64,000 nucleotides of DNA from an uncultured Chloroflexia bacterium (GCA_963779315.1 CAVZXQ010000018.1:114623-178622); one strand, 5' to 3'; counted from the stretch's first letter, positions 41,404 to 64,000 are shown. Translations and numbers: made by a program. Notes: generated from the sequence alone by a model not told the origin.

Positions 41404-41432
41404 GACCCAGGCGGGGCAGCGGGAGGACACTC

Positions 41433-43244: not shown

Positions 43245-43291
43245 ACACCACGTGGGACACTTCGCCCCTCCCGTGACATCTATGGGGCATG
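43245..43291 (+). promoter_or_regulatory. Promoter block of sigma gene 1, duplicated at 48066-48101.
   Basis: gggacacttcgcccctcccgtgacatctatggggcatgg is near-identical in front of sigma genes 1 and 2, and the related motif catctgtggggcatg sits before sigma gene 3. The block abuts the ATG, so the transcript is probably leaderless. Confidence 0.45.
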
Positions 43292-43835
43292 GTGGCTGAA
43301 CTGACGACAGTGCGAGGCATCGCGGCATCGACCGTGGCGGACGCCGCGGCCGGCGACGCGGATGCGCTCGCCCGGATCGTGGGTGCCCATCACGACGACA
43401 TGGCGCGCATCTGCTACGTCATCTGCGGCGACCAGGACATGGCCCAGGATGCCGTCCAGGCCGCCTGGCCCGTCGCCTGGCGCAAGCTCGGCTCGCTGCG
43501 GGACCCGGAACGGCTGCGACCCTGGCTGATGGCCGTCGCCGCGAACGAGGTCCGCCAGGTCATGCGCCGCCAGCGCCGGCACCAGGTCGTCGAGATCGAG
43601 GTCGCCGACATCGGGTCCTCGCACGGTGACCCGGCCGCCAGCTCCGCCCTGACCGATCTTGCCGTGGCCCTTCGGCGGCTGACTCCCAGAGGACCGCACC
43701 CTGCTCGCCCTGCGCCACGTTGCGGGCTTCGATGCGACCGAGATCGGTCGCGAACTCGGGATGTCGCCATCGGGCGTCCGCTCCCGCCTCGCTCGCCTGC
43801 TCGAGCGCCTCCGAACGGAGCTGGCAGATGTCTGA
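43289..43835 (+). CDS. ECF/sigma-70 family sigma factor 1; frame break near 43685.
   Basis: Contains region 2 (...AVQAAWPVAWRKLGSLRDPERLRPWLMAVAANE) and region 4 (LLALRHVAGFDATEIGRELGMSPSGVRSRLARLLERL). Confidence 0.75.
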
Positions 43836-45370
43836 CTCGACCTTCGAGACCCTGCTTACCGGGCAGCTCCGCGAATACGCCGAAGCCGGCGTCCGACCGA
43901 TCGACCGCTACGCGATCGCCGAGGCGATCATCTCCCACTCGGTGGCCGCCGGCACGCAGCAGCGCGGCTCGGCGCTGGCGAGCCCTCTGGCGATCAGCGG
44001 TCGACCAGCCGAACGCCGCTCGTCGCCGCGCTCCTGCTCGTCGGCCTGCTCATCGCGCTGATGGGGGTCATGCTGCTGCCGGGCGCGCGACCGCTGTTCC
44101 CGGCCGTCGTCGAGCCCGACGGCCTCCGCGACGACCGGTCCTGTGGGCGTACCAGCCGAGGGGCCGCCGATCGCGTCTCCCGCCGAATTCCCATCGGCGT
44201 CGTCCGAACCGGTGCCCGGCCAGGGTGTCATGACCCGGGTCGCGGACATGACGGAGGGTCGGATCGAGCCGGTGATGGTGACGCTGACGGATGGCCGCGT
44301 CCTGATCGTCGGTGGCTTGTCGATCGATGGCGTCCCCGACGCGCCCGCCGAGATCTTCGATCCGTCGACCGGGCGGTTCGTCACCGTCACCACGCCCGAT
44401 TCGGTGATCGGCGACGGCTCCGGCTCCGGCGTGCTCCTTCGGGATGGCCGGGTCCTTGTCGTCCTGTACAGCGGCAACCACCTCGCCTCGTCGATCCACG
44501 TCTTCGATCCGCAAGCGATGACGTGGACCCGAGTCACCGCGAAGGGTTTCGAGGGCAACGAGCTCGATGGCAGCGGCCCGATCCGACGGTATCCGACGCT
44601 GACCCTGCTCCGTGACGGTCGCGTGCTGCTGTCCGGCGGCGAAGTGAACTCCCCCGGCGGGGGAACTGGGACCGTTGTGGATACAGCGGAGATCTTCGAT
44701 CCGGTGACGGGGACACTTTCGCCGACCGGGTCGATGACGAAGCCGCGCACGGGTCACTCGACCACCCTCCTGCCGGACGGTCGCGTGCTGGTGGCAGGCG
44801 GAAGGGGTCTATGCGACACGATACGGGACAGTCTCAGGTTCTGCGATCTTCCAGACCTCCAGGACGCGGAGATCTACGATCCGGCGACCGGGACCTCCAT
44901 GCCGACCGGCCCGATGTCGGGCGTAGCGCGGCGTGACCGAGGGCATGCTGCTGCCAGACGGCCGGGTCCTCGTCCTGTCGATCTCGTTAGCTTCTAGGTC
45001 GGACGGGACCGACGGCCCCGGTCTGGCCGAGATCTATGACCCAGCGAGCGGAACGTTCGCGGCCGCGGCGTCCACTCCACACGGGGCCCGGACGGCAACG
45101 CTCCTTCCGGATGGTCGAGTCTTCCTGACCGCCCCGTGGGAAGAGCTGCCGGCCACGAACGACCAAACCGGTCCATTCACGATCTGGTCCGGGATCTACG
45201 ACCCGGCGACCGGTTTGACGCAGGATGGACCCGCTCCTCCGGCCGGGCGGCAGCAGCCGGCCCTCCTCGCCGACGGACGCATCCTGCTCGTCGGGGGTGA
45301 GGTGAACAGGCGACCGTTGGACGGCCCGCCGGACTCGGCTCCGTGGGCGGAGCTCTACGAATGGCGCTGA
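43828..45370 (+). CDS. Membrane anti-sigma-like protein with an extracytoplasmic Kelch-type beta-propeller; frame breaks.
   Basis: The start overlaps the sigma stop (ATGTCTGA). The N-terminus MSDSTFETLLTGQLREYAEAGVRPIDRYAIAEAI is followed by a TM helix (LVAALLLVGLLIALMGVML) and repeated ...DGRVL[VL]xGG...[IV][FY]DPxTG[TR]F... Kelch-like blades. Confidence 0.6.
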
Positions 45371-45491
45371 TCGCCCGGCTCAACCACGACTTCGGCGCGA
45401 CGCAGGAGATCACATCAGTGACGGCGTGGCGGCCAGCAGCCCACGCCTCAGGCCCACGCCTCAGCCCACCCAGGCTGCAAGGAGATCCGGT

Positions 45492-46634
45492 ATGAACGTC
45501 ACTCGACTCGCCGCTCCGCACCAGGTCCTGCTCGTCGTCGTGGCGGTCGTCCTCGGCGCGTGCAGCCCCGCGGCCGCACCCCCGTCAGGCGCGGTCTCGC
45601 CCAGCCCATCTCCGGCCGCGATCGCCTCCAGCGCATCGACTGCGTCGCCCGCCGCGACGCCGCCTCCCGCGAGCCCAGCGCCCATCGCCGTCAAGGACGG
45701 CGTGCCGTGGATCGTCTATCAATGGGACCCGGAGCGTGGACAAGGTCTCTACCTCATGCGTCCGGACGGAAGCGACGCCCGCGAGATCTCGACGAACCTG
45801 ATGGGGGAGGCCGGCAACCCGGACTGGTCACCCGATGGGAAGAAGATCGCCTTCGAATTGATGGTCAGAGACAACGTCTTTGAGATCTGGACGGTGAACG
45901 CTGACGGCACCGATCCACAGCGGCTCCTCGCCTGCGAAGCCGCCCCATGCGTCCAGGTTGGCGTCCCGGCCTGGTCGCCCGACGGCAAGCAGCTGGCCTT
46001 TGGGCGACTGGTCAACCCCACCGGGAACTACCAGGACGACCGAGTCACGATCGAAACAATGGACCTGGCGACCCGCGCGTCTCGCGTGATCGCGGTCGCG
46101 CCCGCCGCGGACGCTGAGTACGCCGACTACGTCAACGCGCGGTGGTCGCCCGACGGCAAGCAGGTCGTCTTCCAGATAAACACCTACGCAACGCCCCCGA
46201 CGAACGAGAGCCTGCTCGGCAGCTCCATCGCGGTCGTCAACACGGACGGGAGCGAGGTCAACAGTCCGCGGATCCTGACCGACGCGGCGATATTCGGCTC
46301 GTATCCCGATTGGAGCCCCGACGGCAAGCACATCGTCTTCAACACGAACAACCTGCTCTCCTTCCAGACCACGACGAAGGCATCGAACCTGTACACGATC
46401 CGCCCCGACGCGAGCGGATTGACCCAGGTCACTCACTACGGGGACAACGACGCCCGGGCGACCCAGCCGAGCTGGACACCGGATGGCAGGCAGATCATCT
46501 TCACCGATGTCCTGTTCAACCCGGCAAACCCGTACGGCGACCGGCACGCTGCGTTCATCGACCCGGATGGCTCGGATCTCACGGTCCTCGACGGTCCCTT
46601 CGCAACGCACCCGCGCCTGCGCCCGACACCCTAG
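45492..46634 (+). CDS. PD40/TolB-like beta-propeller lipoprotein with a C-terminal HPRLRPTP tail; intact.
   Basis: The lipobox is VVLGAC, followed by a Pro/Ala/Ser linker and the motif PIAVKDGVPWIVYQW. Repeats of WSPDGKxIAF follow, and the C-terminus is ...FATHPRLRPTP. Confidence 0.75.
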   Translation: MNVTRLAAPHQVLLVVVAVVLGACSPAAAPPSGAVSPSPSPAAIASSASTASPAATPPPASPAPIAVKDGVPWIVYQWDPERGQGLYLMRPDGSDAREISTNLMGEAGNPDWSPDGKKIAFELMVRDNVFEIWTVNADGTDPQRLLACEAAPCVQVGVPAWSPDGKQLAFGRLVNPTGNYQDDRVTIETMDLATRASRVIAVAPAADAEYADYVNARWSPDGKQVVFQINTYATPPTNESLLGSSIAVVNTDGSEVNSPRILTDAAIFGSYPDWSPDGKHIVFNTNNLLSFQTTTKASNLYTIRPDASGLTQVTHYGDNDARATQPSWTPDGRQIIFTDVLFNPANPYGDRHAAFIDPDGSDLTVLDGPFATHPRLRPTP

Positions 46635-46668
46635 TTGTAGTTCCCGGGGTTTGTGAGACACGGTGCCG

Positions 46669-47440
46669 GGCTCAGACTGGCATCAACTCGGCGAGCCATC
46701 CCTGCAGGTGATCGAGTGCCGGCACGCGCTCGAAGCCGCGAGCCGTGAACGGGGTGCCATCGAAGCGCTCGGCCGGGGTGTGCCAGTCCAGTTCGCCGTG
46801 CAGTCGGTCGTAGTTGTAGTAGGCCGCGAAGTGGGTGAGCCCATCGGACGCGGCGTCGAGCGTCCGGAAGATCTGGCGGTCGAGCAGCTCCGACTGGAGG
46901 ATCCCCCAGAAGCGCTCGATCTTGCCATTCGTCCAGGGCGAGTTCACCTGGGTCCGGATGTGCCGGATGTGGAGCTCCTCGAGGGTCTTGCCGAAGAGGG
47001 TCAGGACGCCTGGCATCCAGACGACGAACGGGCGTGCCGTTGTCGCTCATCAGCTCGAGTGGCGTGCCGCACAGCTCGACGCAGTCGTCGAGCCAGGCGA
47101 GGATCGGTGCGGCCCGCGGCTGGGCCAGGACGCGCAGCCCGATGAGGAAGCGCGAGTGGTCGTCGACGAGGCCGACGATCCAGACCTTCTCGTACTCGCG
47201 GACCGAGCGGCGCAGGAAGAACGGTCCCTTGATGTCGATGTGCCAGAGCTCGTTGGGCCGCACGCGCTCGTAGGCCGGACCACGGGCACGGCGGGTCGAG
47301 GGCCGGGCCGTCCCGAACTCGGCGAGCAGGCCGTCGACCGCGTGGTGATCGAGCGGGCAGGTGCTCGACCTGGCCAGGATGGCTGAAACGTCCTCGGTGT
47401 AGCTCGCCACGCCGCCCCTCGATCCTGGCATGCGTCGATC
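46669..47440 (-). mobile_element. IS481/IS3-like rve (DDE) transposase remnant; frameshifted and probably N-truncated.
   Basis: The segments ELWHIDIKGPFF, VGLVDDHSRF, LMSDNG and NSPWTNGKIERFWGILQSELLD are present, split between ORFs 46631..47476 and 46672..47016. Confidence 0.65.
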
Positions 47441-47719
47441 ACCTGCCCCCAGCCTGACGCGCGCATTCGTCCGCATCGAACCAACCCAGCGAGGAAGTCA
47501 CGAGCAGGTCAGGCCCGAGGGTCCTCGCGATGCTCGCAGGGGCGCTCATCGCGCTCAAGGCATGGCTGTCTCGTCGATCGACGCGGTGGTTCGTCGGAGC
47601 CCGAGCTCGACGACGAGGTAGGTTGGTCGGGGCGAGAGGCATTGCCCCGCGACCACCGACCTTCCGATCACGATGCGGCTCGCCGAGCCTCCAGAGCCCT
47701 TCGACTGGCTGCGGAGCGC

Positions 47720-47977
47720 ATGACGCGACGGCGCCTCCACCCCGCCGAGCGCGCCACCGATCGTGAGGTCGGCGTGGTCACAGCCGTGCTCGTGACCGGG
47801 TCGGAGAAGGCGGCCGCCCACCGCCTCGGCCTGTCGCACTCGACCGTGAAGCACCACCTGGCGAACGCGAGGTCGAAGGTCGGGGCCGACACGACGGCGC
47901 AGCTAGCGTGGATCCTGGGGCCTCGGCTGCCGGAGCCCGAGGGCATGGCCGAAGCGGATGAGCAGCGGTCTGCTTGA
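47720..47977 (+). CDS. Small LuxR/GerE-type HTH protein.
   Basis: TDREVGVVTAVLVTGSEKAAAHRLGLSHSTVKHHLANARSKVGADTTAQLAWIL matches the LuxR C-terminal HTH. Confidence 0.5.
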   Translation: MTRRRLHPAERATDREVGVVTAVLVTGSEKAAAHRLGLSHSTVKHHLANARSKVGADTTAQLAWILGPRLPEPEGMAEADEQRSA

Positions 47978-48098
47978 CGCGGTCGTGGATGGCCCGCAGG
48001 CGTTGATGGTCCGGCACTGATCCCGCCCGCGACGCCCGATGTCGCGCTCCGCAAGGAGGCTGTGGGACACTTCGCCCTTCCCGTGACATCTATGGGGC

Positions 48099-48645
48099 AT
48101 GGTGGGTGAACTGACGATCCCAGGCGGCATCGCCGCATCGACCGTGGCGGATGCCGCGGCCGGTGATGCGGATGCGCTCGCGCGGATCGTGGGCGCCCAC
48201 CACGACGACATGGCCCGCATCTGCTACGTCATCTGCGGCGATCAGGACATGGCCCAGGACGCGGTCCAGGCCGCCTGGCCGATCGCCTGGCGCAAGCTCG
48301 GCTCCCTGCGCGACCCGGAGACGGCTCCGGCCGTGGCTCATGGCCATCGCCGCCAACGAGGTCAAGCAGGTCATGCGCCGGCAGCAACGTCATGGGGTGG
48401 TCGAGATCGAGGTCGCCGATATCGGCTCGTCGCACGGCGATCCGGCGGCCCGATCCGCCCTGACCGATCTGGCCGTCGCGCTGCGCCGACTCTCGCCCGA
48501 AGACCGAACCCTGCTCGCCCTGCGCCACGTCGCCGGCTTCGATGCGACCGAGATCGGTCGCGAACTCGGGATGTCGCCGTCAGGCGTGCGTTCCCGCCTG
48601 GCTCGCTTGCTCGAGCGTCTCCGATCGGAGCTCTCCGATGACTGA
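48099..48645 (+). CDS. ECF/sigma-70 family sigma factor 2, a paralog of sigma 1; frame break near 48320.
   Basis: Near-identical to sigma 1 at the protein level and carries the same upstream block. Confidence 0.75.
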
Positions 48646-49942
48646 CATGACCTTCGAATCCCTGCTGAGCGGACAGCTCCGCGAGTACGCCCAGGCCGGC
48701 GTCCGACCGATCGACCGATACGCGATCGCCGAGGGGACGATAGAGGCGGGACGGCCGAGGGTTCGCTGGAGCCGGTCGTTCGTCCGGACGCGCCGAACGC
48801 TCACGCTCGTCCTGGTCGGGCTGCTGATCATGGCCCTCGCGGCGAGCGGTGCCCTGGTAGCAAGCCGGTTGCTCAAGCCCCATGCCGCATACCAGGGGAT
48901 CCTGGCCTCCGTCGGCCCGACCTATGGCGAGATGCCGTGGGACTTCGCCTCCGCCGCATTGGCTGACGGGACGTTCGCCATCCTCGCAGGCGATGGACGG
49001 ACCGTGCTGATCTGGGATCCCGAGTCCGGCCAGACACGTCCAGCCGGGACGCTGGCGATCATGCGCGGCCAAGCCGGCTATCTACAGAGGCCGTCGATGA
49101 TCGAACTCGAAGACGGGACGATCTTCCTGACGGGGGATGCCTCGGGGACCGACGATCCGATGACGTGGGAGCGATTTGACCCGAGTACAGGTCGATCCGT
49201 GGCCACCGGCGTGTTCGACTCGACACACGCCAGGTTCGATTCGTCCCTGGTCAGACTGTCCAACGGAAAGGTCCTGATCGTGGGCGGTCAGGGGCAGTCC
49301 TTTTCGCCGGGGGACGCCAGGGCGAGCCTTTGGGATCCAACGACGAACGCCCTTCGACCGATCGAGTCCATGGACGCAGGCCGACGACGGCCATGCCTGA
49401 CGACCCTTCTGGATGGTCGCGTGCTCGTCGTCGGCGGTACGCCGGAAGCCCGCAGTGCCGAACTCTATGACCCGGCGACCGAGACGTTCGAGCGCACCGG
49501 GCTCGCGCTTGCGGGTTACGGCAGGGCTGCCACGCGGCTCGAGGATGGACGCGTGCTCGTCCTTGGCGCAGCGCTCACCAGCGGGCTCGTGGACCTGGCT
49601 GAAGGACACGACGCCTCGACGGTGATCTACGACCCAACGACCGGCGAGTTCGCGCAAGGTCCGACCCTACCCCGCGCAGGGGACCTCGTCGCCGCGCTGC
49701 CGTCAGGCCAGATCCTGGTCGTCGGAGGGTGGACGTACGAGGGCCGCCCCGATTCAAACCCGTGGGCCGGACTTCTCGACCTCGCGACCGGCGCGACCAC
49801 ACAGATCGCCACTCCTGATCGGATCGCGTTCGACATCCACCTCCTGCCGGATGGAGCGCCCGTCCTGGCAGGCGGCGTGTCGCCCTTCGAACAGTTGGTC
49901 ACACCAGTCGAGATGACCTGGGGTCAGGTCCTCCGCCAGTAG
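48638..49942 (+). CDS. Anti-sigma-like membrane protein with a Kelch-type propeller; intact, 434 aa.
   Basis: The N-terminus MTDMTFESLLSGQLREYAQAGVRPIDRYAIAEG is followed by the TM helix LTLVLVGLLIMALAASGALVA and five or six DGRVLVVGG...YDPxT blades. The start overlaps the sigma stop. Confidence 0.7.
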   Translation: MTDMTFESLLSGQLREYAQAGVRPIDRYAIAEGTIEAGRPRVRWSRSFVRTRRTLTLVLVGLLIMALAASGALVASRLLKPHAAYQGILASVGPTYGEMPWDFASAALADGTFAILAGDGRTVLIWDPESGQTRPAGTLAIMRGQAGYLQRPSMIELEDGTIFLTGDASGTDDPMTWERFDPSTGRSVATGVFDSTHARFDSSLVRLSNGKVLIVGGQGQSFSPGDARASLWDPTTNALRPIESMDAGRRRPCLTTLLDGRVLVVGGTPEARSAELYDPATETFERTGLALAGYGRAATRLEDGRVLVLGAALTSGLVDLAEGHDASTVIYDPTTGEFAQGPTLPRAGDLVAALPSGQILVVGGWTYEGRPDSNPWAGLLDLATGATTQIATPDRIAFDIHLLPDGAPVLAGGVSPFEQLVTPVEMTWGQVLRQ

Positions 49943-49975
49943 GATCCGCCCGAATGAGTCACTGAGGAGTCCCGA

Positions 49976-51091
49976 ATGCGTCCCATTCGCATCATCGCCC
50001 GTGGCACCGCCGTGCTCATCCTTGCGACACTCGCGGGATGCAGCGCGAGCGGACAGACAGCGCCCCCATCGTCTCCTGGGTCGATCGCGACGCCCGCGGG
50101 CTCGGCGATCGGTGCGTCTCCCACCGGGCGGGCCCCGACCAGCCCATCGCCAAACGCGAGCGTCGGCGACGCAGCCGGGTCGATCGTCTACCTGGGTCCG
50201 GTCGATGGTGGTGCGGGCATCCGGATCGTCGGAACCGACGGTACCGGCGACCACTGGCTGTTCCCGGACGTCAAGATCCCGAAGGACGGGTGGCAGGCGC
50301 ACGCGGACTGGAGCCCGGACGGGACACGACTTGCGTTCGCCTCGGATGATCCGGCGGACCCGCCCGGGGCTGAGATCACCCGGGACCTCTGGGTGGGCGA
50401 CGCCGACGGAGCCAACGCGCGGCGCGTCTTCGACTGCGTGTCACCCTGCCTTGAGGCGGAAGAACCCGCCTGGTCTTCGGACGGGCGCATGCTCGCGTTC
50501 GTGACCTGGGGGCCGCAGCCCGCGAGCCTGGCCGTGCTGGACCTCGCCACCGGTACGATCTCCCTCATCCTGACCGTCGATCACGACCCCGATGCGTTCC
50601 GCCGCCCACGATGGTCGCAGGACGGACACCGGATCGTCCTCGAGCACCAGACCTGGACCGGTGGGGAGGACGACCAGATCGCGGACTCGGTCATCGGGAT
50701 CGTCGACCTGGATTCGGCGTCGCCCCGATTCACCCCGATCACGGAACCTGCCATGTGGGCCACCTACCCCGACTGGCACCCGACCGAGGACCGCATCGTG
50801 TTCTCGACGCGACCGTGGAGCGAGCTCGGCGATGGACCGTCGAACCTCTACACCATCCGCCCGGATGGATCGGGGATGACCGCCCTGACCGACTTCGTCA
50901 GTGGCCAGAGCCGCACCGTCCAGCCGCACTGGACCCCCAACGGCAAGCAGATCATCTTCACCAAAGTGGAGGGGACGGGCTTCGGCAACCCCACGATGGC
51001 AGTCATCGACGCCGACGGCACGGGGCTCCGCTCGGCGACCGGCGATGCCTGGCTCTTCGGCACGCACCCGCGCCTTCGCCCGACACCCTGA
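49976..51091 (+). CDS. PD40/TolB-like lipoprotein with a ...FGTHPRLRPTP tail; intact.
   Basis: The lipobox is LATLAGC. Propeller repeats such as HADWSPDGTRLAF and RWSQDGHRIV are present. Confidence 0.75.
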   Translation: MRPIRIIARGTAVLILATLAGCSASGQTAPPSSPGSIATPAGSAIGASPTGRAPTSPSPNASVGDAAGSIVYLGPVDGGAGIRIVGTDGTGDHWLFPDVKIPKDGWQAHADWSPDGTRLAFASDDPADPPGAEITRDLWVGDADGANARRVFDCVSPCLEAEEPAWSSDGRMLAFVTWGPQPASLAVLDLATGTISLILTVDHDPDAFRRPRWSQDGHRIVLEHQTWTGGEDDQIADSVIGIVDLDSASPRFTPITEPAMWATYPDWHPTEDRIVFSTRPWSELGDGPSNLYTIRPDGSGMTALTDFVSGQSRTVQPHWTPNGKQIIFTKVEGTGFGNPTMAVIDADGTGLRSATGDAWLFGTHPRLRPTP

Positions 51092-51197
51092 ACGCCCGCG
51101 CACGACGCCCTGACCCCAGCGGTCCCACCGCCGAGATCTTCCGATGACTAGCTGACGTCGGGCACAGCTCATCGCCCGCCTATCCGAGGAGTCCTAC

Positions 51198-52320
51198 ATG
51201 CGTCCCGCTCGCCGCATCGCCCTAGGCACCACCTTGCTCATCGCCGCGACCCTCACGGGATGCAGCGCGAGCGGATCCACGGCGCCCCCCGTGACGCGTG
51301 CGCCCAGCGCCACGCCCGTTCCGGTCGCGTCGGCCGCGCCCAGCACACCGGCCGGTGCCATGCCGTCGTCATCGAGCGTGGGCGACGCGGCCGGATCGAT
51401 CGTCTACCTCGCTCAGATCTCCCAGGACGGGGCGAACGGCATCCGGATCGTCGGAACCGACGGCACGGCGACCACTGGCTGTTCCCGGACGTCAAGCTCC
51501 CGAAGGACGGGTGGCAGGTGCACCCGGACTGGAGCCCGGACGGCACGCGACTCGCGTTCGCGGCGGACGATCCGGTGGTCGCGCCCGGCGCCGAGTTCAC
51601 CCGCGACCTCTGGGTGGGCGACGCCGACGGACGAGTGCGCGGCGCGTCTTCGACTGCGTGGCGCCCTGCTTCGTTGCGGACGACCCCGCCTGGTCACCGG
51701 ACGGGCGGACGCTCGCGTTCGTCACGTGGGGAGGGCCGAATCCGGCCACCCTGTCCCTGCTCGACCTCGAGGCCGGGTCGGTCACCACGATCGTGTCCGA
51801 GCAGGGTCCCACTCCCAACGGGTTCCTGTGGCCGCGCTGGTCGCCGGATGGCCGCCGGATCGTGCTCGAGTACCAGACCTGGACCGGCGGGGCGGACGAC
51901 CAGATCGTGGACTCGGTCATCGGCATCGTGGACCTGGACGCGAAGACGCCGGCGTTCATGCCACTCACGACGCCCGAGATGTGGGCAACCTACCCCGACT
52001 GGCACCCGACCGGCGACCTGATCGTCTTCTCCACGCGCCCGTGGCGCGAGCTCGACGATGGACCGTCGAACCTGTACACGATCACGCCGGATGGGGCGGG
52101 CCTGGCAGCCCTCACCGACTTCGGCCCCGGCGAGACCCGCGCCGTCCAGCCGACCTGGCTCCCGGATGGCTCCGGGGTCATCTTCACCGCCGTCGAACCG
52201 TTCGGTGCCGCCGATTCGACGATGATGGCCGTCATCGACGCCGACGGCACGGGGTTCGGCCCGGCGACCGGCGATGCCGGGCTCTTCGGCACGCACCCGC
52301 GCCTTCGCCCGACACCCTGA
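51198..52320 (+). CDS. PD40/TolB-like lipoprotein with a ...FGTHPRLRPTP tail. It is a tandem paralog of 49976..51091 and has two frame breaks.
   Basis: Collinear with the upstream copy, and the 3' end together with the downstream sequence is near-identical. Confidence 0.7.
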
Positions 52321-52395
52321 ACGGCGTCCACACCACAGGGTGACGCGAACATCGTCGGGCGCGCGATGCGCCACCCGGAGTGAATCACTTGACCC

Positions 52396-54222: not shown

Positions 54223-54287
54223 ACCACCCGCCTGCGTAGCCGCGCCCGACCGACCAAACCCACCCCACCATCCACAGGAGATCTGCC

Positions 54288-55413
54288 ATGACCTTCGTTC
54301 GACGCGCCCCGAATCACGTGCTGCTCGCCCTCGTCGTCATCGGTCGTCCTCGGCGCCTGCAGTCCCGCCGCCGCGGCCCCATCCAGTGCTGTCGGGCCGA
54401 GCCCATCTCCGGTCGCCGTTGCCTCCAGCGCGCCGACGGCGTCCCCAGTCGCAACGGCATCACCCACGGCGAAGCCGACGCCGATCACGGTCAAGGACGG
54501 CGAGGAGTGGATCGTGTACTGCTGGTATGTCGACCAAAAGCAGGACAGAGACCTGATCCTCGCCCGCGCCGATGGGACCGATGCCCACGCAATAGCCACG
54601 GACGTTCCGGGTGGAGGCTGCTTGGCGTCCTGGTCACCGGACGGCAGCCAGATCGCGTTCGTGAAACGGAATGAGGCCCACCCGCTCGGAGCGATCTGGA
54701 CCGTTCGAGCTGATGGTTCCGGCGCTGCGATGCTGACCGATGGGGGTGGGGCGTGCCCGGGCGGCATCTTCCACCCCAACTGGTCGCCCGACGGCTCGAG
54801 GTTGGCCGTCGTCTGCTATCCGGACACGGACCCGGGTGGAGGGTCGGTCGCCACGTACGACCTCGCGACCAGGAAGGTGACACGTCTCAACACGGTGACC
54901 TGGCCCGATCACCTGGACAACGCGCCGAGCTGGTCTCCGGACGGGAAGTCGCTCGCATTCGCCATCCTGCACTGGGATCCCACCGACAAGTTCCTCGATG
55001 GATCGTTGGTCGCGACGATCTCGGTTGACGGTGGCAAGGAGCGCCGTCTCACGACGTACGACACCTTTATGTCGGCGCCGGACTGGAGCCCGGACGGGTC
55101 CCAGATCGTCATGAGCGACTACGACCTCGGCAACATGCACACGTCGACCCACCCGTCGAACCTGTACCTGATCAAGCCGGATGGGACGGGGTTGCACCAA
55201 TTCACCCACTCTGCCGTCGATCCCACGATGCGGATCGCCGCACCGCATTGGACGTCGGACGGCAGCCGGATCGTCGTCGCGATCGGTTCGCCCCCGCCGG
55301 GACCGACACCGTCAACGATGTCCAGCTCGCTTTCCATGCCACGGACCTGGCGGGCGGGCTCTTCTCGCCGACGATCCACGGGTCGGGACCGGACCTGCGG
55401 CCCACGCCCTAGC
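54288..55413 (+). CDS. PD40/TolB-like lipoprotein with a ...GPDLRPTP tail; frame breaks near 54340 and 55290.
   Basis: Contains PITVKDGEEWIVYCWY and APSWSPDGKSLAF. It is a paralog of 59013..60084. Confidence 0.65.
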
Positions 55414-55486
55414 GTCGGCCCCCGGCCCCGCGCCACCCGCGGCCCGCCGTCAATGGTCCTCCCGGCGTCAGGCCCCCGTCCGTGGC

Positions 55487-55640: not shown

Positions 55641-55785
55641 CACGGGGATCCTGGGCCTGCGGCCCACGCCGCAGGTTCATCTCGTGGCCCGGCGCTGCGC
55701 GGCGAGAAGATGGAACGATGTGGCGGCGATCTCGCCTCATAGTCTCGACAGCGGCCATACGGTCGCCACAGACTGGGTCGGCGAT

Positions 55786-56338
55786 GCAGCGAGATCTCGT
55801 CCTTCGCGCAAGCACTGGTGACCACGACGCGTTCGCGTCGCTGGCGACCGATGCGTACGGCCGGCTCCATCGCACCGCCCGGCTGATCCTCCGGCGCGAG
55901 GACCTGGCGTCGGACGCGGTCCAGGAGGCGCTCACCTCGGCCTGGCTCCACATCCGGGCCGTGCGCGATCCGGACCGCTTCGATGCCTGGCTCAACCGGC
56001 TCGTCGTCCGCGCCTGCCACACGGAGCTGCGACGGGCGAAGCGCGGGCCGATCGAGATCCACGTCGACACGATCGAGGCGCCCGGGGTCGACGACTCCGC
56101 CGGCGACCTGGCGGACCGCGACCAGCTCGAACGCGGCTTCCGGCGCCTGTCGGCCGAGCATCGCGCGGTCCTCGTCGTCCACCACTACCTGGGGCTGCCC
56201 GACGCGGAGGCCGCCACGGTCCTCGACGTCCCGATGGGCACCTACAAGTCCCGCCTCAATCGCGCCCACCTCTCGCTGCGCGCGGCCCTCGAGGCCGATG
56301 CGCGCGTCGCCGGGATCGGCAAGGAGTCCGTCGCATGA
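55786..56338 (+). CDS. ECF sigma factor 4, RpoE-like.
   Basis: Region 2 is DAVQEALTSAWLHIRAVRDPDRFDAWLNRLVVRA, and region 4 is VLVVHHYLGLPDAEAATVLDVPMGTYKSRLNRA. Confidence 0.8.
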
Positions 56339-57663
56339 CCGCCCAGAACGACCTCGACCGGGCGCTTGGCGCGTGGTTCGACGGCGATGCCGTAGCGCGC
56401 CGCCGCCCGAACCGCTGGCCCGAGTCATCGAGTCGACCCGGACCATCCGACCGCGCCCGGCGCTCACCGCCCGCGTCGGCAGCCACTGGGTCGGGGCTGG
56501 ACCGACGAGTGGACGCCCGGGCCGGCCTCGCCAGCCTTCGGCCCGCCATGGTCATCGCGCTCGTCGCGCTCCTCGCCCTGGCCCTCGTCGGAGCCGCCGT
56601 GCTGGTCGGCAGTCGGCTGGTGGCTCCAAGGACACCCCAACACACCTACCTCAACGAGTTCACGTCCGCGCCGGACCTGTCGATGCCGATGGCGTACCCG
56701 ACACTCGTGCCCCTTCTGGACGGCCGCGTTCTGGTCATCGGCGATGACGGCGACGGCGGCGGCACGGGCACCAGGGCGCTGGTCTACGACCCGGCCACCG
56801 GCGTCTCGGCGTCGACTGGCCCACTCGTGTCCGGTGAATCGCTTGGGGTGGAGTCGGCGGTGCGGTTGAAGGACGGAAGAGTCCTGATCATCGGGAACGC
56901 TGGCGCTCAGGTCCTCGAGGACGCAACCCAGGTCTTCGATCCGAGCACCTTCGGCTTCACGCCGGTTGGTCCGATGATCACCCCCCGCAGCGGGGCCGCG
57001 GTCGCGCTGCTTCCTGATGGACACGTGCTGATCGCCGGTGGGATGCCGTGGGGCCAGGATGCCGCGACGAACTCGGCCGAGCTCTTCGATCCGAACACGT
57101 CGACGTTCTCGCCGACGGGATCGCTCGGCACAACGAGAGCGTACGCCGCTGCGGCGAGCCTGCCGGACGGCCGCGTCTTCGTGTCGCCTGGCGAAAGCCG
57201 CAAGACCGCCGAGGTCTATGACCCGACCACAGGAACGTTCAGCGGCGCCGGCACGACGTTGGACTACGGCTCCAGCAACGTCGCGATCGCGCAATCCCGA
57301 TGGCCGGGTCGTCGTCTTCAAGACCACGGGCCTGGGGGGAAAGGGGATCGTCGAAGTCTGGGACCCGACATCGCTCACGTTCTCGCAGCGCGGCCCTCTG
57401 GCGGGTCGACCCGCCAGCGCGACCCTCTTGGACGACGGGCGGATCCTGCTTACCGGCGGGTACGGTGGGAGTTCGCGTATCTACGATCCGGCCACCGGCG
57501 GGACCCCCTTGACCGATGCGACAGGGGCCTGGGGACCCAGGGCGACGCGGCTCGCCGACGGGCGAGTGCTGATCGTGGGCGGCCTGCTCGACGGACGCAT
57601 CCGGCCAGAAGGTGGTGGGACCCAGGCGCCCGGCGTCTCGACGGTCGAGATCTTCCAGTGAGG
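56335..57663 (+). CDS. Anti-sigma-like membrane protein with a Kelch-type propeller; frame breaks.
   Basis: The N-terminus MTAQNDLDRALGAWFDGD is followed by the TM helix MVIALVALLALALVGAAVLV and LLDGRVLVIGD.../LPDGHVLIAGG.../LADGRVLIVGG blades. The start overlaps the sigma stop. Confidence 0.6.
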
Positions 57664-57810
57664 AAGCACCCGTCGTCCGCCGCGAAGTCGCGTCGGCCGG
57701 GCGGGCGGCCGGTGGATCCGATCACGAGCCGATCCGCAGGCCCAAGACCTCGGTCTGGCATGAAGCCCCCGACCTATGCGCGTCAGCGCCCAACGCCGTG
57801 ACCGGAGGAC

Positions 57811-58980
57811 ATGATGTTCCCAGCCCTTAGGCTCGCCACCCTGCTCGCAGTCGCCCTGCTCGGGTCGGCCGCGTGCGCGGCGGGCACCGTCTCATCCGGT
57901 CCATCCGCATCTTCCGCTCCGGCTTCGACCTCGACCGCCGCCGACCCCGACGGTCGCCGCGTCCCCGAACGCGACCCCTGTCCCGAGCCCCACCCCGTTC
58001 GCCATCAAGGATGGCGAGCCGTGGATCGTCTACGAGTGGGTCCAGGACTGCGGCGGTGACAGTTGCGACGAGCGGTGTCTACCTGGTCCGGCCCGACGGC
58101 CGCGATAGGCATCTGCTCCTCACGACTCCGGCGGGCCACCCGGACTGGTCGCCGGACGGCAAGCGTCTCGCCGTCGACCAGCCACCGGACGGCGCCTGGC
58201 GAGATCTGGACCATGAACGCGGACGGTACTGACCACGAGCAGCTCATCGCCTGTTCGGGGGCGCCCTGCACGAGCTTGGGCTTGCCCGGCCTGGTCGCCC
58301 GATGGCAAGCACCTGGCCTTCGTGCGCAATCTCAAGCCGAACGCACCTGGATACGAGGACTCCCAGGCGGCGATCGAGGTCCTCGACCTGGCGACCGGCG
58401 CCACCCGCGTCGTCGCCATGTCTCCCGTCGCGGTCACCGAGTCCGTCCAGTACATGGATCCGCGCTGGTCCGCCGGACGGCACGCAGATCGTCTTCACGG
58501 TGATGCGCTACCCGATGCCACCTACCGACGAGAACATCCTGGGCAGCTCGATCGCGGTCGTGAAGGCTGACGGCTCCGAGGCCGATGCACCCCGGATCCT
58601 GACCGATCCCGCGATGTTCGCGAACCTATCCGGACTGGAGCCCCGACGGCGAGCGCATCGTCTTCAATACCTACCCGCTCGGCTCCTTCCAGGAAACGAC
58701 GAAGGCGACGAACCTGTACACGATCCGGCCCGACGGGACCGGGCTGACCCAGGTCACGCACTTCGGCGAGAACGACACGCGGGCGACCCAGCCGACCTGG
58801 ACGCCCGACGGCAAGCAGATCATCTTCACGCAGATCGCGCGAAACCCGAGCAACTCCTGGGGTGAGCGTCAGATCGCCCTCATCGATGCGGACGGCTCGA
58901 ATCTGGCCTTGATCCCCGTGCCCGGCACCGCCGACGACCACTGGTATGGGACGCACGCGCGGATGCGCCCGACGCCCTGA
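57811..58980 (+). CDS. PD40/TolB-like lipoprotein with a ...GTHARMRPTP tail; several frame breaks.
   Basis: The lipobox is LLGSAAC, followed by FAIKDGEPWIVYEW and HPDWSPDGKRLA. It is a paralog of 45492..46634. Confidence 0.6.
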
Positions 58981-59012
58981 CCCAGCCAGCCAACCAAGAC
59001 AGAGGTGTCTCC

Positions 59013-60084
59013 ATGCGTGTGCTCACGATCGTCCTGCTTGCGATCCTGCTGTCGGCGTGTGCTGGGGCGTCGCCCAGTGCCGTGACCGCTCCCTCGCCAT
59101 CGGTCGCCGCGATCGCCAGTACGCCTCCGACCGCCAGCCCCGCGCCACAGCCGACCCCGCTCGCCGTCCTCGATGGCGAGCCATGGATCGCCTATAGCTG
59201 GCCGCGTCCGACGGACGGTCAATTCGCGATCTTCCTCATGCGTCCGGACGGGTCCGATGCCCACGAGATCGCCGCCGACGTCCCGGGCGAGCACAAGGCG
59301 CCTGCTTGGTCGCCCGACGGCAAGAAGCTGGCGTTCGTGGTCCAGGACGGCGATCACCCGGATGGGTCGATCTGGACCGCGAATGCCGACGGTTCAGGCG
59401 CGGCGTTGTTGTCGGCCGGTGGGACCGAATGCCCGGTCGGCCTGTTCCATCCGGCGTGGTCCGCAGACGGAACGAAGCTCGCCGTCGTCTGCTATCCCGG
59501 AGATGATCGGGAGGCCGTCGCCATCCTGGATCTTGCGACCGGCTCCCTGACGCGCCTCGCCACATTCGAGGCCCCGGATCATCTGGACAACGCTCCGACT
59601 TGGTCGCCGGACGGGCGAACCATCGCCTTCGACATCCTCCATTGGGACCCGACCGGCCAGTTCATCGATGGATCCGTCGTCGCGACGATACCCGTCGCGG
59701 GCGGGGAGATCCATCGGCTCACGGCCCCCGCGGCATTCATGTCCCATCCGGACTGGAGCCCGGACGGCAGCGAGTTGGTCATGAACTCCTACGACCTGGG
59801 CAACATCCCTTCGACCGCGAAGCCGTCGAACCTGTACGCGATCAAACCGGATGGGTCGGGTCTACGCCAGCTCACCCACTCATCGAAGGACGGCTCGATG
59901 CGGATCGGACAGCCGAACTGGGACCCGGACGGCATCGCGGATCGTGGTTTCCATCCTGACCTCGACCGGCCCGGACTTCACGTTCGCCGACGTGAAGCTC
60001 GCGTTCGTCGACGCTGCCGGCGGCGAGCCTGTGCTCATCTCCCAGGCAGACGGGAAGTATCCGGACCTGCGCCCGACGCCCTGA
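59013..60084 (+). CDS. PD40/TolB-like lipoprotein with a ...KYPDLRPTP tail; frame break near 59940.
   Basis: The lipobox is LLSAC, followed by LAVLDGEPWIAYSW and APAWSPDGKKLAF. Confidence 0.7.
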
Positions 60085-60201
60085 CCGCTATCCCCCGCTA
60101 GTCAGCGAGCGCGCCACGGCCGAAGATGGAACCTTTCCTGGCTCTCCTCACCACATATCCCGTGAAGTGGCCGGATCGGGCGCAGCGGTCAGGGAGTCGA
60201 G

Positions 60202-60759
60202 ATGCAGGCAGAGCTCGTGGCACGGGCGCAGCAGGGTGATCGAGAAGCGTTCTCGACGCTTGCCGCCGGCGCGAGTGCCCGTCTGTACGCCACGGCCCGG
60301 CTGATCCTGACCCAGCCCGACCGGGCCGAGGACGCCGTCCAGGACGCGCTCGTCGAGGCCTGGCGTGACATTCGCGGCCTGCGGGACCCTGACCGACTGG
60401 ACGCGTGGCTCCACCGGCTGCTGGTTCGTGCCTGCCACCGCCACCTCCGGCGCGACTACCGGCGGCGGGTCCGGGAGATCTCCGTGCCGGAGATCGACGC
60501 AGGCGAGGTCGCTGACAGCGCACGGGCCTTTGCAGACCGCGACGAGATGGATCACGCCTTTCGTCGCCTGACCGACGACCAGCGCACCATCCTGGCGCTG
60601 GTCTACTACGCCGACCTCCCACTTGCCGATGTCGCCATCGCCTTGGGCATCCCGATCGGCACGGCGAAATCCCGTCTCAATCGCGCGATGGCTGCCTTGC
60701 GGGCCGCACTCGCCGCCGACGAACGTACCTCCGCGATAGTGAACGGACAGCCAGCATGA
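60202..60759 (+). CDS. ECF sigma factor 5, RpoE-like.
   Basis: Region 2 is DAVQDALVEAWRDIRGLRDPDRLDAWLHRLLVRA, and region 4 is ILALVYYADLPLADVAIALGIPIGTAKSRLNRA. Confidence 0.8.
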   Translation: MQAELVARAQQGDREAFSTLAAGASARLYATARLILTQPDRAEDAVQDALVEAWRDIRGLRDPDRLDAWLHRLLVRACHRHLRRDYRRRVREISVPEIDAGEVADSARAFADRDEMDHAFRRLTDDQRTILALVYYADLPLADVAIALGIPIGTAKSRLNRAMAALRAALAADERTSAIVNGQPA

Positions 60760-61705
60760 ACGCCCGACGATGATCTCGATCCCCAGTTCGACGACCTTGG
60801 ACCCCGGCTGATGGCCTGGATGAGTGCGACGGCCAAGAGGCCCGATGCCGCCGCGCTGGTAGGTGGCGCTGTGCGTCGGACCGAGTCGGTCGGTCAACGG
60901 CCAAGGCTGTTGGCTCGGACCGGGCTTGGCCGGAGCCGACGACCCTGGATCGTGCTCGGTCTTGCAGCGGCGCTGGCTCTGCCGGCCAGCTGGCTTGCAG
61001 CGGGAGCGCCGCTCCCGACCCAGACTGTGCCCAGCGTCGCGCTCCAGACTCCAGGTCCGACGTCTCTCTCAGCTCCTGCGAGCCCCGCGGTCGCGGGGCC
61101 CAAGACACTGGAGACGGACTTCATCGACCGCCCCTTCGAGTACTTGATCCCGGCCGGAAGCGCGACCCGTCGGCTCGACAGCGGTGGAGTCCGCGAGTTG
61201 GTCGAATGGGTGGACGGTCCGGACGTGGCGCTCGGTCCGTCTCCGGCTCCGGAGGATCTGAATCCCTGGGTGCATGCCTCAGCCCGGGAACGTACGGAAC
61301 CTACGGGGCGTCATCCTGGGCTCAGCCGAGGAAGCCTGGGGCCACGGAGCTGCGGGGCGGTTCATGCTCAAGACGGCGCCGGCCGAGCTCCTCGCCGACC
61401 TTCGTGACAACACGGGTGTGCACATGGGCACCATCGAGGAGACGGTGCTCGATGGACGGCCGGCCTGGACAGCGATGCTGTCAGGCGTTGGCGGGTACGA
61501 CATCCACGTGACCGGGCGCATGAAAGGCCTGAGCGGGGACTTCGTGATCCTGACCATCCCTTCACGTCTCACCGTGACCGAAGTCGACGGCACCACCGTC
61601 TTCATCCTGACCTGGGCGCGCACGGCCGCCGACCTCGACGCGTGGCTCCCGGTCGCCGACGAACTCGTCGCCTCGATCCACTTCCTCCCGGCGGAACAGC
61701 CATGA
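60756..61705 (+). CDS. Anti-sigma-like membrane protein with an uncharacterised extracytoplasmic C-terminal domain; frame breaks.
   Basis: The start overlaps the sigma 5 stop. A TM helix (WIVLGLAAALALPASWLAAGA) is present, and the C-terminal domain is in ORF 61274..61705. Confidence 0.5.
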
Positions 61706-61731
61706 GGAGCATCCCGGGAGCGGGACCCTTC

Positions 61732-62318
61732 TTAGTCCCAGCGGTCCCAGCGGGCGAAGTCCTCGAACGGCACCCAGCCGCGCTTGAGGCTGGGTGACCG
61801 GACGTCCGGCAGTGGCTTGCCGACCGGCATGACCCCGATCGGGACGAACTCGTCCGGGATGCCGAGGTAGGCGCGCAGCGGCTCGATCTCCGGTCCGACG
61901 AAGCCGCAGCCGAGGCCCTCGTTCACGGCGGCCAGCATGATGTTCTGCATCGTCGCGCCGATGTCGACCCACCAGTAGGGGACCGGCCAGTCGATCTCCG
62001 CGCCGTCGTCATCGACCTTGTCCGCCTCCTGGTAGCGGCGGTGGTAGATCGCCTCGCTGACGCACGGGATGAACTGGGCGGCGCACTCGCTGATCCACGG
62101 CCCGAAGTCCGCCTCGTACGCCTCCTCGCCGCAGATCCGGGCGACCTCGCGACGGCCGCCGGGTCCGTCACGACGATCAGCCGCTGGCCCTGGCTGAAGC
62201 CGGCCGACGGCGTGCGCTGGGCGAGCCGGGCGATGCGCTCGATGACCTCGCGGTCGACGCCGCCTTCCTCGAACCGGCGCACCGCGCGGCGCTTCATGAC
62301 GACGTCGGTGAACTCCAT
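61732..62318 (-). CDS. Nitroreductase-family protein; frame break.
   Basis: The N-terminus MEFTDVVMKRRAVRRFEEGGVD is present, and the C-terminal portion is in ORF 61732..62769. Confidence 0.6.
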
Positions 62319-62336
62319 CGGATCTCCTCTCAGGCG

Positions 62337-62706
62337 GTGAGCACGTCCGTCCCGTAGGCCAGGAAGGCGGTATCGCGGCTGACCACGATCGCGCCGACGC
62401 GATCCGCCTGCGCGACGAGCATCCGGTCGAAGGGATCGCGGTGGTGCGCCGGCAGCGAACCAGCTCGCTCGGCGTCTCGGCCGGTGATCGGAAGGACATC
62501 GAAGCCGGCCTCGTCGATGGCCGCGACCAGGCCGACGGGCGCCGACAGCTTGCCCAGCGCACGCTTGATCTCGATCTCCCAGATGCTCGCGGCAGAGACC
62601 AGGACGTCGTTCGTGGGATCCGCGATGGCCGAGCGGGCGGCGGGTCGAGCGTCGGGTCATCGGCGAGCCACCAGAGGACGGCGTGCGCGTCGAGCAGCAG
62701 GATCAC
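62337..62706 (-). CDS. vapC: PIN-domain toxin VapC; frame break.
   Basis: Contains (V)ILLLDAHAVLWWLADDP...VLVSAASIWEIEIKRALGKL...RDPFDRMLVAQA. The GTG start overlaps the antitoxin stop. Confidence 0.65.
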
Positions 62707-62941
62707 GACTCGAAGGCGTCCAGGAGCGATGTCGTCCGTCTGGTCGAAGTCCGCGTGCGATGCGGACACGACCGCGCCACTGGCCGGGCACGCGCGGGCT
62801 CGTCCGGGCCCGGAAGGGGATCAGGCGGGCGACCGGCCGCCCGGCGCGCGCGATGACGACCTCTTCCCCGGTCTCGACGCGCTCGATGAGCCGCGAGAGG
62901 TGCGTCTTAGCCTCGTGGATGTTCACGGTCGGTTCGGCCAT
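62693..62941 (-). CDS. Phd/YefM-family antitoxin; frame break.
   Basis: MAEPTVNIHEAKTHLSRLIERVETGEEVVIARAGRPVARLIP is present, and the C-terminus ...DAFES overlaps vapC. Confidence 0.65.
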
Positions 62942-63068
62942 GCTCGCGAGCCTACGAGGTTAGTCCAGGTTAGTCAACTCGGCCGAGATGGAACCTGGAG
63001 GTGGCCCACACACCCCGTACTCCACAAGGCTGGCCGATCGGTCCGCCCGACAGCTCGCGTGGAGGCGT

Positions 63069-64000
63069 CATGTCCCGATACCAGCGCCGTGGCGGCGATC
63101 GTCTGCCTCGTGGTCGTCGCCGCCTGCAGCGCAGGGGCGGCCGCGGTCGCACCATCGACGGCTGTTCCGACGGTTTCGCCCTCGGCGAGCGCGCCGTCTC
63201 CATCGGCCGCGCCGTCAACGATGGCCGCGACGCCCTCTGCGGATCCTGTCCTCCCCGTCATCACCGACGCGGACCCACGGATCCTCTACACCACGCACCG
63301 CCCAGACGCGGATGTCGGGGTCTACCTGATGCGGTTGGATGGGACCGATGCCGTGCAGCTGGCGACCGACGTTCACGGCAGCCTCAAGCACCCGGACTGG
63401 TCGCCCGATGGCCAGCACGTCGTCTTCATCGACGAAACGACCGAGAAGATGTGGATCGCAAACCTGGACGGCACACCCTCCACATCGATCACCGCCTGCG
63501 ACGTCCCCGGCTGCGACTACCCGGCCTGGTCGCCGGATGGGTCGAAGCTCGCCTTCAGCCGCGCTGAGTTCGGCGCCGGTCGTCGGACCATCGGCCGTCG
63601 GGATCCACGTTCTGGATCTGGCGTCCGGGGATGTGTCGACCGTCATTCGCCTCGAGCGTCCGCTGCTCGCCGACGTCCCGCGCTGGTCGCCGGACGGTAG
63701 CCGGATCGTGTTCGGTGTGGACCGAATGGACGACGCCGCGACCGAGACAGGGTCGGCCATCGCGGTCGTCGCGGCGACCGGCGGCGAACCACGCTACCTC
63801 ACGGACTTCGCGAAGTTCGCCTACTACCCGGACTGGAACCGCGTGACAGACGAGATCGTATTCTCGACCGAGGGGCTGTTCTTCAGGGGTGAGCCAGATC
63901 CTGGCGACACGTGGAACCTCTACGCCGTCAGGCCGGACGGGAAGGGGCTGCGCCAGATCACGGACGTACCGGCGGGCCAGCGGCTTTGGAACCCGACCTG
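63069..64000 (+). CDS. PD40/TolB-like lipoprotein; 3' end beyond the window and frame breaks present.
   Basis: The lipobox is CLVVVAAC, followed by a Pro/Ala/Ser linker. Propeller repeats HPDWSPDGQHVVF, YPAWSPDGSKLAF and VPRWSPDGSRIVF are present. Confidence 0.6.

Follow-up and report, generated by a model that had tools for sequence, protein, structure and literature searches.

A 64,000-nucleotide stretch of DNA from an uncultured Chloroflexia bacterium (GCA_963779315.1, CAVZXQ010000018.1:114623-178622; hereafter, the window) carries, between positions 43,245 and 64,000, five genes for extracytoplasmic function (ECF) sigma factors, each overlapping the gene of a single-pass membrane partner, with genes for candidate PD40 lipoproteins interleaved among them. 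We consider it probable that five autoregulated ECF sigma/anti-sigma surface-signaling modules, with an accessory lipoprotein, are arrayed here in tandem. Among bacterial alternative sigma factors the ECF family is the largest and, to our knowledge, the sensor and the signal are not known for most ECF groups. An earlier note on this DNA had proposed a lineage-specific extracytoplasmic sensing system. The sensing part of that proposal fits the gene overlaps, the one transmembrane (TM) span of each partner, the propeller domains, the lipoboxes and the ECF-type motifs described here, whereas the restriction to one lineage does not hold.

The gene map was obtained with family hidden Markov models (HMMs) run on all stop-to-stop fragments, in which the sigma, Kelch and PD40 proteins are recognizable but switch reading frame; consecutive segments in different frames were read as a frameshift, and orthologues refined the result. 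Two related loci recur throughout: L081, a short-read metagenome scaffold, and L030, the GTDB representative MFD04651.bin.2.158, labelled Chloroflexia, which holds three modules and keeps synteny with the window (77-92% nucleotide identity) all the way between a flanking gene and a nitroreductase gene. All five sigma genes lie on the plus strand. Pfam finds Sigma70_r2 and Sigma70_r4_2 in sigma3 (52417..52971), sigma4 (55784..56338) and sigma5 (60202..60759), three intact genes whose products score 64.8, 52.8 and 77.6 bits, respectively, against the NCBIfam model TIGR02937 (sigma70-ECF, cutoff 42.9), sigma3 being 94.6% identical to L081 sigB and sigma4 90% identical to L030 sigC. The remaining two, sigma1 (43289..43835) and sigma2 (48099..48645), each contain one inserted base, at ~43688 and ~48321, and match a local sigma HMM over its full length with the segments split over two frames; both are 90-99% identical to the intact 181-residue ECF sigma of L081 (91-96% for sigma1 against L081 sigA). 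With sigma regions 2 and 4 only, and a length of ~170-200 residues, these proteins belong to the ECF group (group IV) of the sigma-70 family, as the earlier note had read them. No named ECF subfamily is reached, the best model, TIGR02983 (SigE-Streptomyces), giving 83-116 bits against a cutoff of 141.55 and the other sigma subfamily models of NCBIfam (SigM, SigK, RpoE and others) remaining far below theirs. A family HMM scan of the window found no sigma or Kelch gene outside the array, and five ECF sigma genes within 21 kb are clearly a cluster beyond chance.

The gene of the membrane partner overlaps the end of the sigma gene in the window and in every relative examined. An ATGA junction had been described at all five pairs; the overlap stands at each of them, but true 4-nucleotide ATGA junctions occur only at sigma4 (56335) and sigma5 (60756), the reading frames of sigma1-3 ending in ...DD or ...DV before the stop codon and overlapping the partner, as is the case in all relatives, by 8 nucleotides, ATG(A/T)CTGA (ATGTCTGA at the sigma1/anti-sigma1 junction). 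Exactly one strong hydrophobic span is present in each of the five partners (LVAALLLVGLLIALMGVML in anti-sigma1). Kelch repeats (Kelch_6, Kelch_1, Kelch_2 and Kelch_4, above the Pfam cutoffs) characterize the partners of sigma1, sigma2 and sigma4, that is, anti-sigma1 (43828..45370, plus strand, as are all the partners; an N-terminal head and three frameshifts; Kelch_6, 7.9e-18), anti-sigma2 (48638..49942; 434 residues, intact) and anti-sigma4 (56335..57661; three frameshifts, one at ~57289 and the others in the head, where the L030 orthologue reveals them). The sigma3 partner, anti-sigma3 (52964..54222; one frameshift at ~53080-53110), carries PD40 repeats according to both Pfam and the family HMMs and ends in ...PRLRPTP, and anti-sigma5 (60756..61705; two frameshifts) has an ectodomain of ~230 residues in which no Pfam or NCBIfam match, and hence no recognized propeller, was found. 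The counts of three Kelch partners and a single PD40 partner agree with the earlier note, and the TM helix and propellers are present after frame correction. The structure model of anti-sigma2 (AlphaFold, mean pLDDT 75) shows two helices, one at residues 6-19 and a long one at 49-79 that presumably spans the membrane, followed by an all-beta domain (88-433) whose best Foldseek matches are Kelch domains and galactose oxidase/GlxA; the head occupies residues 1-40.

The cytoplasmic part before the TM span comprises ~45-55 residues, only ~40 of which are conserved, and nothing in the partner other than this head equals the sigma factor in conservation. In an alignment of 19 full-length partners, the first ~38 residues, the class-A head, are nearly invariant (M.D.TFE.LL.GQLR.YAEAGVRPIDRFAIAE.TIA.GR), the rest of the partner being ~35% identical. 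A second type, the class-B head (DLDR.L..W...DA...PP...L..V......PRP), accompanies the sigma4-type sigmas in the window, in L030 and in a further locus, L090; the ectodomain attached to it is of the Kelch type in the window and of the PD40 type in L090. Across the window, L030, L081 and L090, a class-A sigma always comes with a class-A head (as in anti-sigma3) and a class-B sigma with a class-B head (as in anti-sigma4). An exhaustive HMMER search with a profile of three class-A heads gave representatives of 125 clusters (50% identity), in which the head nearly always occupies residues 1-40; among the 80 full-length head proteins scanned, 31 ectodomains were Kelch and 26 PD40, and the other families matched were nearly all propellers too. 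From the adjacency, the start-stop overlap and the class-matched co-conservation with the sigma factor, we infer that the head is a putative anti-sigma segment that would bind sigma; that the best-conserved segment of the partner should also follow the sigma in class would be difficult to account for if the two did not interact in the cytoplasm.

Class-I anti-sigma domains are ~80-90 residues long, and those of the ZAS type also carry an HxxxCxxC zinc motif. Membership in either is ruled out for the array partners by the absence of any match to the anti-sigma Pfam families (zf-HC2, RskA, RseA_N), together with the short cytoplasmic part, in line with the earlier note, which had set the partners apart from the ZAS and RseA types; the anti-sigma2 head contains neither Cys nor His. 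Class-II (CnrY-like) anti-sigma domains are short peptides that wrap around sigma regions 2 and 4 and are defined structurally, with no sequence model, and the length of the head and the topology of the partner are compatible with this class. If the head were indeed a minimal anti-sigma domain, it would constitute a compact and portable sigma-inhibitor module.

The third component of the modules is a family of candidate PD40 lipoproteins, of which the earlier note had counted eight or nine besides the fusion protein. They are interleaved as described, but only seven stand alone, all on the plus strand, and the PD40-bearing anti-sigma3 brings the PD40 genes to eight. The stand-alone genes are lipoA (45492..46634; intact, lipobox LGAC, C-terminus ...THPRLRPTP), lipoB (49976..51091; 371 residues, intact, LAGC), lipoC (51198..52320; two frame breaks), lipoE (54288..55412; two frameshifts, ending in ...PDLRPTP), lipoF (57811..58980; six frameshifts), lipoG (59013..60084; one frameshift, LSAC) and lipoH (63070..64000; VAAC, at least two frameshifts), the last one cut by the end of the window. 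In bacterial lipoproteins the signal peptide ends in a lipobox and is processed by Lgt and LspA. The signal-like N-termini of the array proteins end in a lipobox-type cysteine (LGAC, LAGC, LTGC, LSAC, VAAC or SAAC), a motif of the pattern [LVI][ASTVI][GAS]C following the hydrophobic N-terminus in 7/7 of these genes and in ~53/120 homologues. Several modules hold two lipoprotein genes, and each gene has an ordinary Shine-Dalgarno site and begins shortly after the gene before it, an arrangement compatible with co-transcription. In the structure model of lipoB (pLDDT 85), an N-terminus consisting of a signal peptide and a disordered linker of ~60 residues (1-61 being disordered) precedes a propeller (69-367) whose nearest structural match is the beta-propeller of TolB, with a TM-score of ~0.6 normalized by query length.

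The family is large (2341 matches, usually annotated as 'Tol biopolymer transport system component') and shares a C-terminal FGTHPRLRP motif. DegS senses a C-terminal YxF tail, and the seemingly invariant C-terminal ...RPTP was considered as a comparable free recognition or sorting tag; this idea was rejected because only 62/120 homologues end exactly at RPxP, FGTHPRLRP itself is conserved, and the confident lipoB model uses THPRL as the final beta-strand of its propeller. Identity with TolB of the Tol-Pal system was likewise rejected, the TolB equivalog model TIGR02800 giving 81-85 bits (81 for lipoB) against a cutoff of 343. The likeness lies in the propeller fold; the array proteins differ from TolB in a predicted lipid anchor and in a gene context that is sigma/anti-sigma (8/8 loci) rather than tol-pal. 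Alignments of lipoB with TolB cover ~310 columns of TolB chains of ~400 residues, that is, the propeller part only, and lipoB appears in its model to be devoid of the N-terminal alpha/beta domain that TolB carries besides its six-bladed propeller. One further, weak match to the PD40 family (31136-32095, minus strand, E = 1.3e-08) lies far upstream of the array, with no adjoining sigma gene.

Two kinds of promoter-like motif precede the sigma genes. A block of ~40 nucleotides, GTG(GG/AA)(A/T)CACTT-N14-CATCT(A/G)TGGGGC, is found upstream of sigma1-3 and of all their orthologues, being conserved in L030 and in L081-L085, and continues straight to the ATG without any Shine-Dalgarno site. Its core, CACTT-N14-CATCT, is matched exactly at 43258..43281 (sigma1, followed by TGGGGC and the ATG), 48068..48091 (sigma2) and 52386..52409 (sigma3), all on the plus strand and nowhere else in the window; allowing up to one mismatch there are 6 matches, versus 0.96 expected from shuffled sequence. 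From this we infer a putative ECF-type autoregulatory promoter with a leaderless transcript. The class-B motif, ATGGAAC-N21-CATA, contains the classical ECF -35 element GGAAC and lies on the plus strand at 55710..55741 (sigma4) and 60126..60157 (sigma5), with a third, class-B-like copy (62988..63019, one mismatch) ~50 nucleotides upstream of the lipoH start; these three matches compare with 0.11 expected (shuffled), and the motif is also present before L030 sigC and the first sigma gene of L090. Within the class-A block, the spacer is as conserved among orthologues as the putative -35 and -10 elements, and the ATG is in every case preceded by TGGGGC (43245-43288, 48055-48098 and 52373-52416), a constraint that exceeds what a promoter needs, so that an extra regulatory site may exist. 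Scans of the window found no Rfam family, tRNA or canonical terminator; the 40 conserved nucleotides upstream of sigma1-3 are thus not a described RNA.

The order sigma, propeller partner, PD40 lipoprotein is not peculiar to the window. It recurs in 8/8 independent loci (L030, L081, L082, L083/84, L085, L087/88, L089 and L090), in Chloroflexota-type and Actinomycetota metagenome-assembled genomes (MAGs), usually as a single copy, and homologues of the array proteins occur together with sigma factors in each of them. Starting from full-length homologues of the Kelch partner (~35% identity), L082, L083/84 and L085 show a 181-residue ECF sigma, the 8-nucleotide overlap, a Kelch partner and a PD40/Tricorn_N-like protein; starting from distant PD40 homologues, the same gene order is met in L087/88 (a Nanopelagicales MAG), L089 and L090, the last with two to three modules. 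Only ~8 of 80 GTDB loci found by Kelch similarity alone, mostly Chloroflexi MAGs, have a sigma gene within ~2 kb upstream, so that the tie to sigma genes belongs to this family of partners and is no general property of Kelch proteins. These comparisons suggest that the triad is widespread and uncharacterized, and iterated five times in the window; as its three-module version in L030 is syntenic, only the degree of iteration is special here. The claim of a lineage-specific system has accordingly been abandoned, the triad being present in many metagenomic contigs, among them an actinomycetotal (Nanopelagicales) one, and the head in at least 125 clusters at 50% identity. The unit, spread over poorly studied soil and freshwater phyla, is now recognizable by its signature, namely a ~40-residue head, a propeller ectodomain and a PD40 lipoprotein whose last strand is conserved. 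In L090, a gene situated between two modules (7260-8003) encodes a 247-residue protein with only a weak Sigma70_r4_2 match and may be a degenerate or divergent sigma-like gene.

The PD40 lipoproteins could be the output of real sigma/anti-sigma pairs, that is, surface proteins made in response to the signal rather than part of the sensor. That the PD40 gene directly follows the partner gene in all eight contexts, from Chloroflexota-type organisms to Actinomycetota, speaks against such a role, as does the 4-nucleotide overlap of the two genes in two loci, which argues for joint function. Conversely, the conventional Shine-Dalgarno site before every lipoprotein gene, the presence of two such genes in several modules, by which the stoichiometry with the partner is not fixed, the position of lipoH alone behind a class-B-like motif, like a regulon member, and the sheer size of a PD40 family with many generically annotated members would all suit an output. 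PD40 can, however, also be the ectodomain of the partner itself (anti-sigma3, L081, L090), which links this domain to sensing, and we regard a pure output role as rather unlikely.

Sequence comparison between close relatives reveals a mosaic. Along the sigma2 module and its L030 counterpart, nucleotide identity is 93-100% in the sigma gene and 88-90% in the head, and then falls within ~60-120 nucleotides to 65% and on to ~45-55%; the same step after the head is seen between the sigma1 and sigma2 modules and against L083. Over the syntenic block, the sigmas are 86-96% identical to those of L030, the ectodomains of anti-sigma3 and anti-sigma4 and lipoE 60-75%, and the flanks, as a baseline, 84-87%. 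The core of lipoC (51400-52150 versus ~11650-12400 in L030) stands above these flanks, at 96-99%, and points to recent transfer or gene conversion. Such a pattern implies recombinational exchange of the sensor domains, homogenization of the sigma-head segment, or both, and, with identity collapsing just after the head, points to swapping of propeller ectodomains between close relatives. The ectodomains change, by divergence or replacement, much more quickly than the genes beside them, as exposed surface proteins typically do, and the membrane partners might be just that, variable surface proteins such as adhesins, phage-exposed receptors or decoys whose only tie to the sigma gene is a common operon, a view to which the lack of a known anti-sigma family for the head would lend itself. 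The conservation pattern runs the other way, with the cytoplasmic head as the most conserved part, matching the sigma in class, and with a strictly conserved start-stop overlap, and we hold the probability of unrelated surface proteins to be very slight.

Taken jointly, the head, the mosaic ectodomains and the constant third gene could mark out a class of ECF anti-sigma factors, widespread among Chloroflexota and Actinomycetota and so far undescribed, with a sigma-binding head of ~40 residues, a propeller (Kelch, PD40 or WD40-like) exchanged by recombination at a breakpoint after the head, and an obligate PD40 lipoprotein co-receptor bearing FGTHPRLRP. We put this broader proposal forward tentatively, as a possibility that falls short of an even chance. 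Were such a class real, close relatives would keep near-identical sigmas while rapidly re-targeting what is sensed, a natural case of sensor-domain swapping on a fixed signaling core, useful for studying how sensing specificity evolves and for designing synthetic ECF switches.

For the array itself, a model can be proposed in which each ECF sigma is translated together with its single-pass membrane partner, whose ~40-residue cytoplasmic head, short like a class-II CnrY-like domain, would hold the sigma inactive at the membrane. The extracytoplasmic beta-propeller of the partner (Kelch or PD40; in one case an unassigned domain) would be the sensor, and the PD40 lipoprotein, tethered to the outer side of the membrane by a long Pro/Ser/Ala linker, would serve as its accessory or co-receptor, as RseB does with RseA or LpqB with MtrB. 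A signal at the propellers would free the sigma by proteolysis or by a conformational change, and the free sigma would then transcribe its own operon from a conserved ECF-type promoter, the leaderless class-A promoter abutting the ATG serving sigma1-3 and the class-B promoter of the GGAAC type serving sigma4 and sigma5, and probably lipoH.

This scheme recalls several known systems. RpoE-RseA-RseB (the sigma-E envelope stress system of Escherichia coli) is similarly an autoregulated operon of an ECF sigma, a single-pass anti-sigma and a third extracytoplasmic protein acting on the outer domain of the anti-sigma, but RseA has a class-I domain of ~90 residues and a non-propeller periplasmic domain and RseB is soluble and not a PD40 protein, whereas the partners in the window have no RseA_N match and their host is probably monoderm. 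CnrH-CnrY-CnrX of Cupriavidus shares a very short cytoplasmic anti-sigma segment on a single-pass protein, next to a separate membrane-anchored extracytoplasmic sensor; unlike the array partner, with its propeller of 340-400 residues and its PD40 lipoprotein as third protein, CnrY is almost devoid of an ectodomain and CnrX is a helical metal sensor; the likeness is one of length and topology. In the MtrA-MtrB-LpqB system of Actinobacteria, the accessory lipoprotein LpqB interacts with the membrane sensor MtrB and modulates it (PMC5845573). The outline is the same, a conserved operon in which a regulator is joined by a membrane sensor and an accessory lipoprotein, but with a histidine kinase and a response regulator in place of the ECF sigma/anti-sigma pair; LpqB is compared with the PD40 lipoproteins by role. 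Beta-propeller repeats are also tied to ECF regulation in the ECF57-type sigma factors, which carry WD40-like C-terminal extensions (PMC8999054); there the repeats are fused to the sigma, whereas in the window the propeller is extracellular, on a separate membrane partner, and accompanied by a lipoprotein. These ECF57 sigmas were all that a literature search on Kelch, PD40, WD40 or propeller anti-sigma factors returned, and no paper on Kelch or PD40 anti-sigma factors was found in the literature searched, which agrees with the earlier note, where the combination was not recognized as a described signaling system.

The state of the reading frames bears directly on whether this array is a living system. 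The window has a GC content of ~70%, owing to which naive lists of open reading frames (ORFs) are full of spurious frames, and frame switches were therefore located with a codon-position GC Viterbi model. It finds ~30 same-strand switches with no stop codon in 1-43 kb and others in 43-64 kb, a density of ~1 per kb with a cleaner stretch at 33.6-39 kb; the breaks are thus a property of the whole window and not of the array alone, a feature that had been given too little weight before. Within the array, ~24 single-base frameshifts break 12 of the 18 genes, leaving only sigma3, sigma4, sigma5, anti-sigma2, lipoA and lipoB as unbroken ORFs. Taken at face value, these breaks would make the array a decaying, non-functional locus, mostly of pseudogenes arising from duplications promoted by an insertion sequence (IS); the IS transposase inside the array, the six breaks of lipoF and the fact that the inserted bases of sigma1 and sigma2 are not homopolymer extensions would all be in keeping with decay. 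Comparable breaks occur, however, all along the 64 kb in many unrelated genes, including the upstream amidase (39957-41403), where the Pfam Amidase match is limited to model positions 1-376 of 445 before the frame changes, and no in-frame stops or large deletions have accumulated.

The relatives point the same way. The exact 434-residue anti-sigma2 protein is present in public sequence data, and in L081, which runs sigma, Kelch partner, PD40, sigma, PD40 partner, every gene is intact; comparison of the L081 sigma proteins with sigma1-3 (90-99% identity) exposes the exact break points. The break positions differ in L030, where the sigma2 orthologue is intact and that of sigma3 is broken, and both lipoC breaks (51468 and 51630) are 1-nucleotide deletions relative to L030. 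Once the inserted base is removed, sigma1 differs from L030 by 42 synonymous and 11 non-synonymous changes and sigma2 by 15 and 4; corrected sigma1 and sigma2 against intact orthologues thus give synonymous to non-synonymous counts of 15:4, 42:11 and 46:12, the same excess as in the unbroken sigma3 (52:10), a signature of purifying selection on the frame-corrected sigma genes. The MFD MAG series, to which the closest relative L030 belongs, is Nanopore-only (PMC12313526). Given the window-wide occurrence, the differing positions, the intact L081 genes, the synonymous excess and the Nanopore-only series, the frame breaks are most likely long-read consensus or assembly errors, the array genes are probably functional in the organism, and a decaying locus appears very improbable to us. 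Gene-level reading of the window hence needs frame correction and, as a practical warning, ~1 indel per kb in long-read MAGs can make an intact operon array resemble a field of pseudogenes.

Some points nevertheless weigh against reading the region as five working signaling modules. The frame breaks are attributed to assembly only as the likeliest cause, and lipoF, with six frameshifts, all +1, in 1.1 kb, much denser than in the neighboring genes, could be a real pseudogene, the alternative being a locally poor consensus. The partners match none of the anti-sigma Pfam families named above, the ~40-residue head is shorter than a class-I anti-sigma domain, and the AlphaFold model of anti-sigma2 is of low confidence over residues 25-49. 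Most lipoprotein genes in the window have neither a class-A nor a class-B motif upstream, their expression from the sigma promoters resting on presumed co-transcription and the class-B-like copy before lipoH being the one direct hint that a sigma may drive a lipoprotein gene, and a scan for terminators and sigma-70 promoters is uninformative in a sequence of 70% GC.

The genes of the modules all lie on the plus strand, as had been stated for the array as a whole, but four other genes interrupt them. Three are on the minus strand and frameshifted, namely an IS-type transposase with an rve integrase core, situated between modules 1 and 2 (46631..47500; rve_3, 4.4e-16; rve, 1.9e-08), a nitroreductase (61732..62325), with which the syntenic array also closes in L030 and L081, and, adjoining it, a PIN-domain (VapC-like) gene (62330..62720). 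Module 1, the amidase block and the rve IS are all absent from the syntenic L030 locus, suggesting an insertion or a duplication at this spot. An ORF of 1115 residues (39957-43304) is an artefact that joins the amidase to two downstream genes (41396-42343 and 42345-42888), neither of which has a Pfam match. The fourth interrupting gene, on the plus strand, encodes a small GerE/LuxR-type helix-turn-helix protein (47650..47977; GerE, 5.7e-06; start uncertain); in L082, an unrelated contig, a gene of the same type likewise comes after the triad (12761-13021), and it may be a recurrent accessory regulator.

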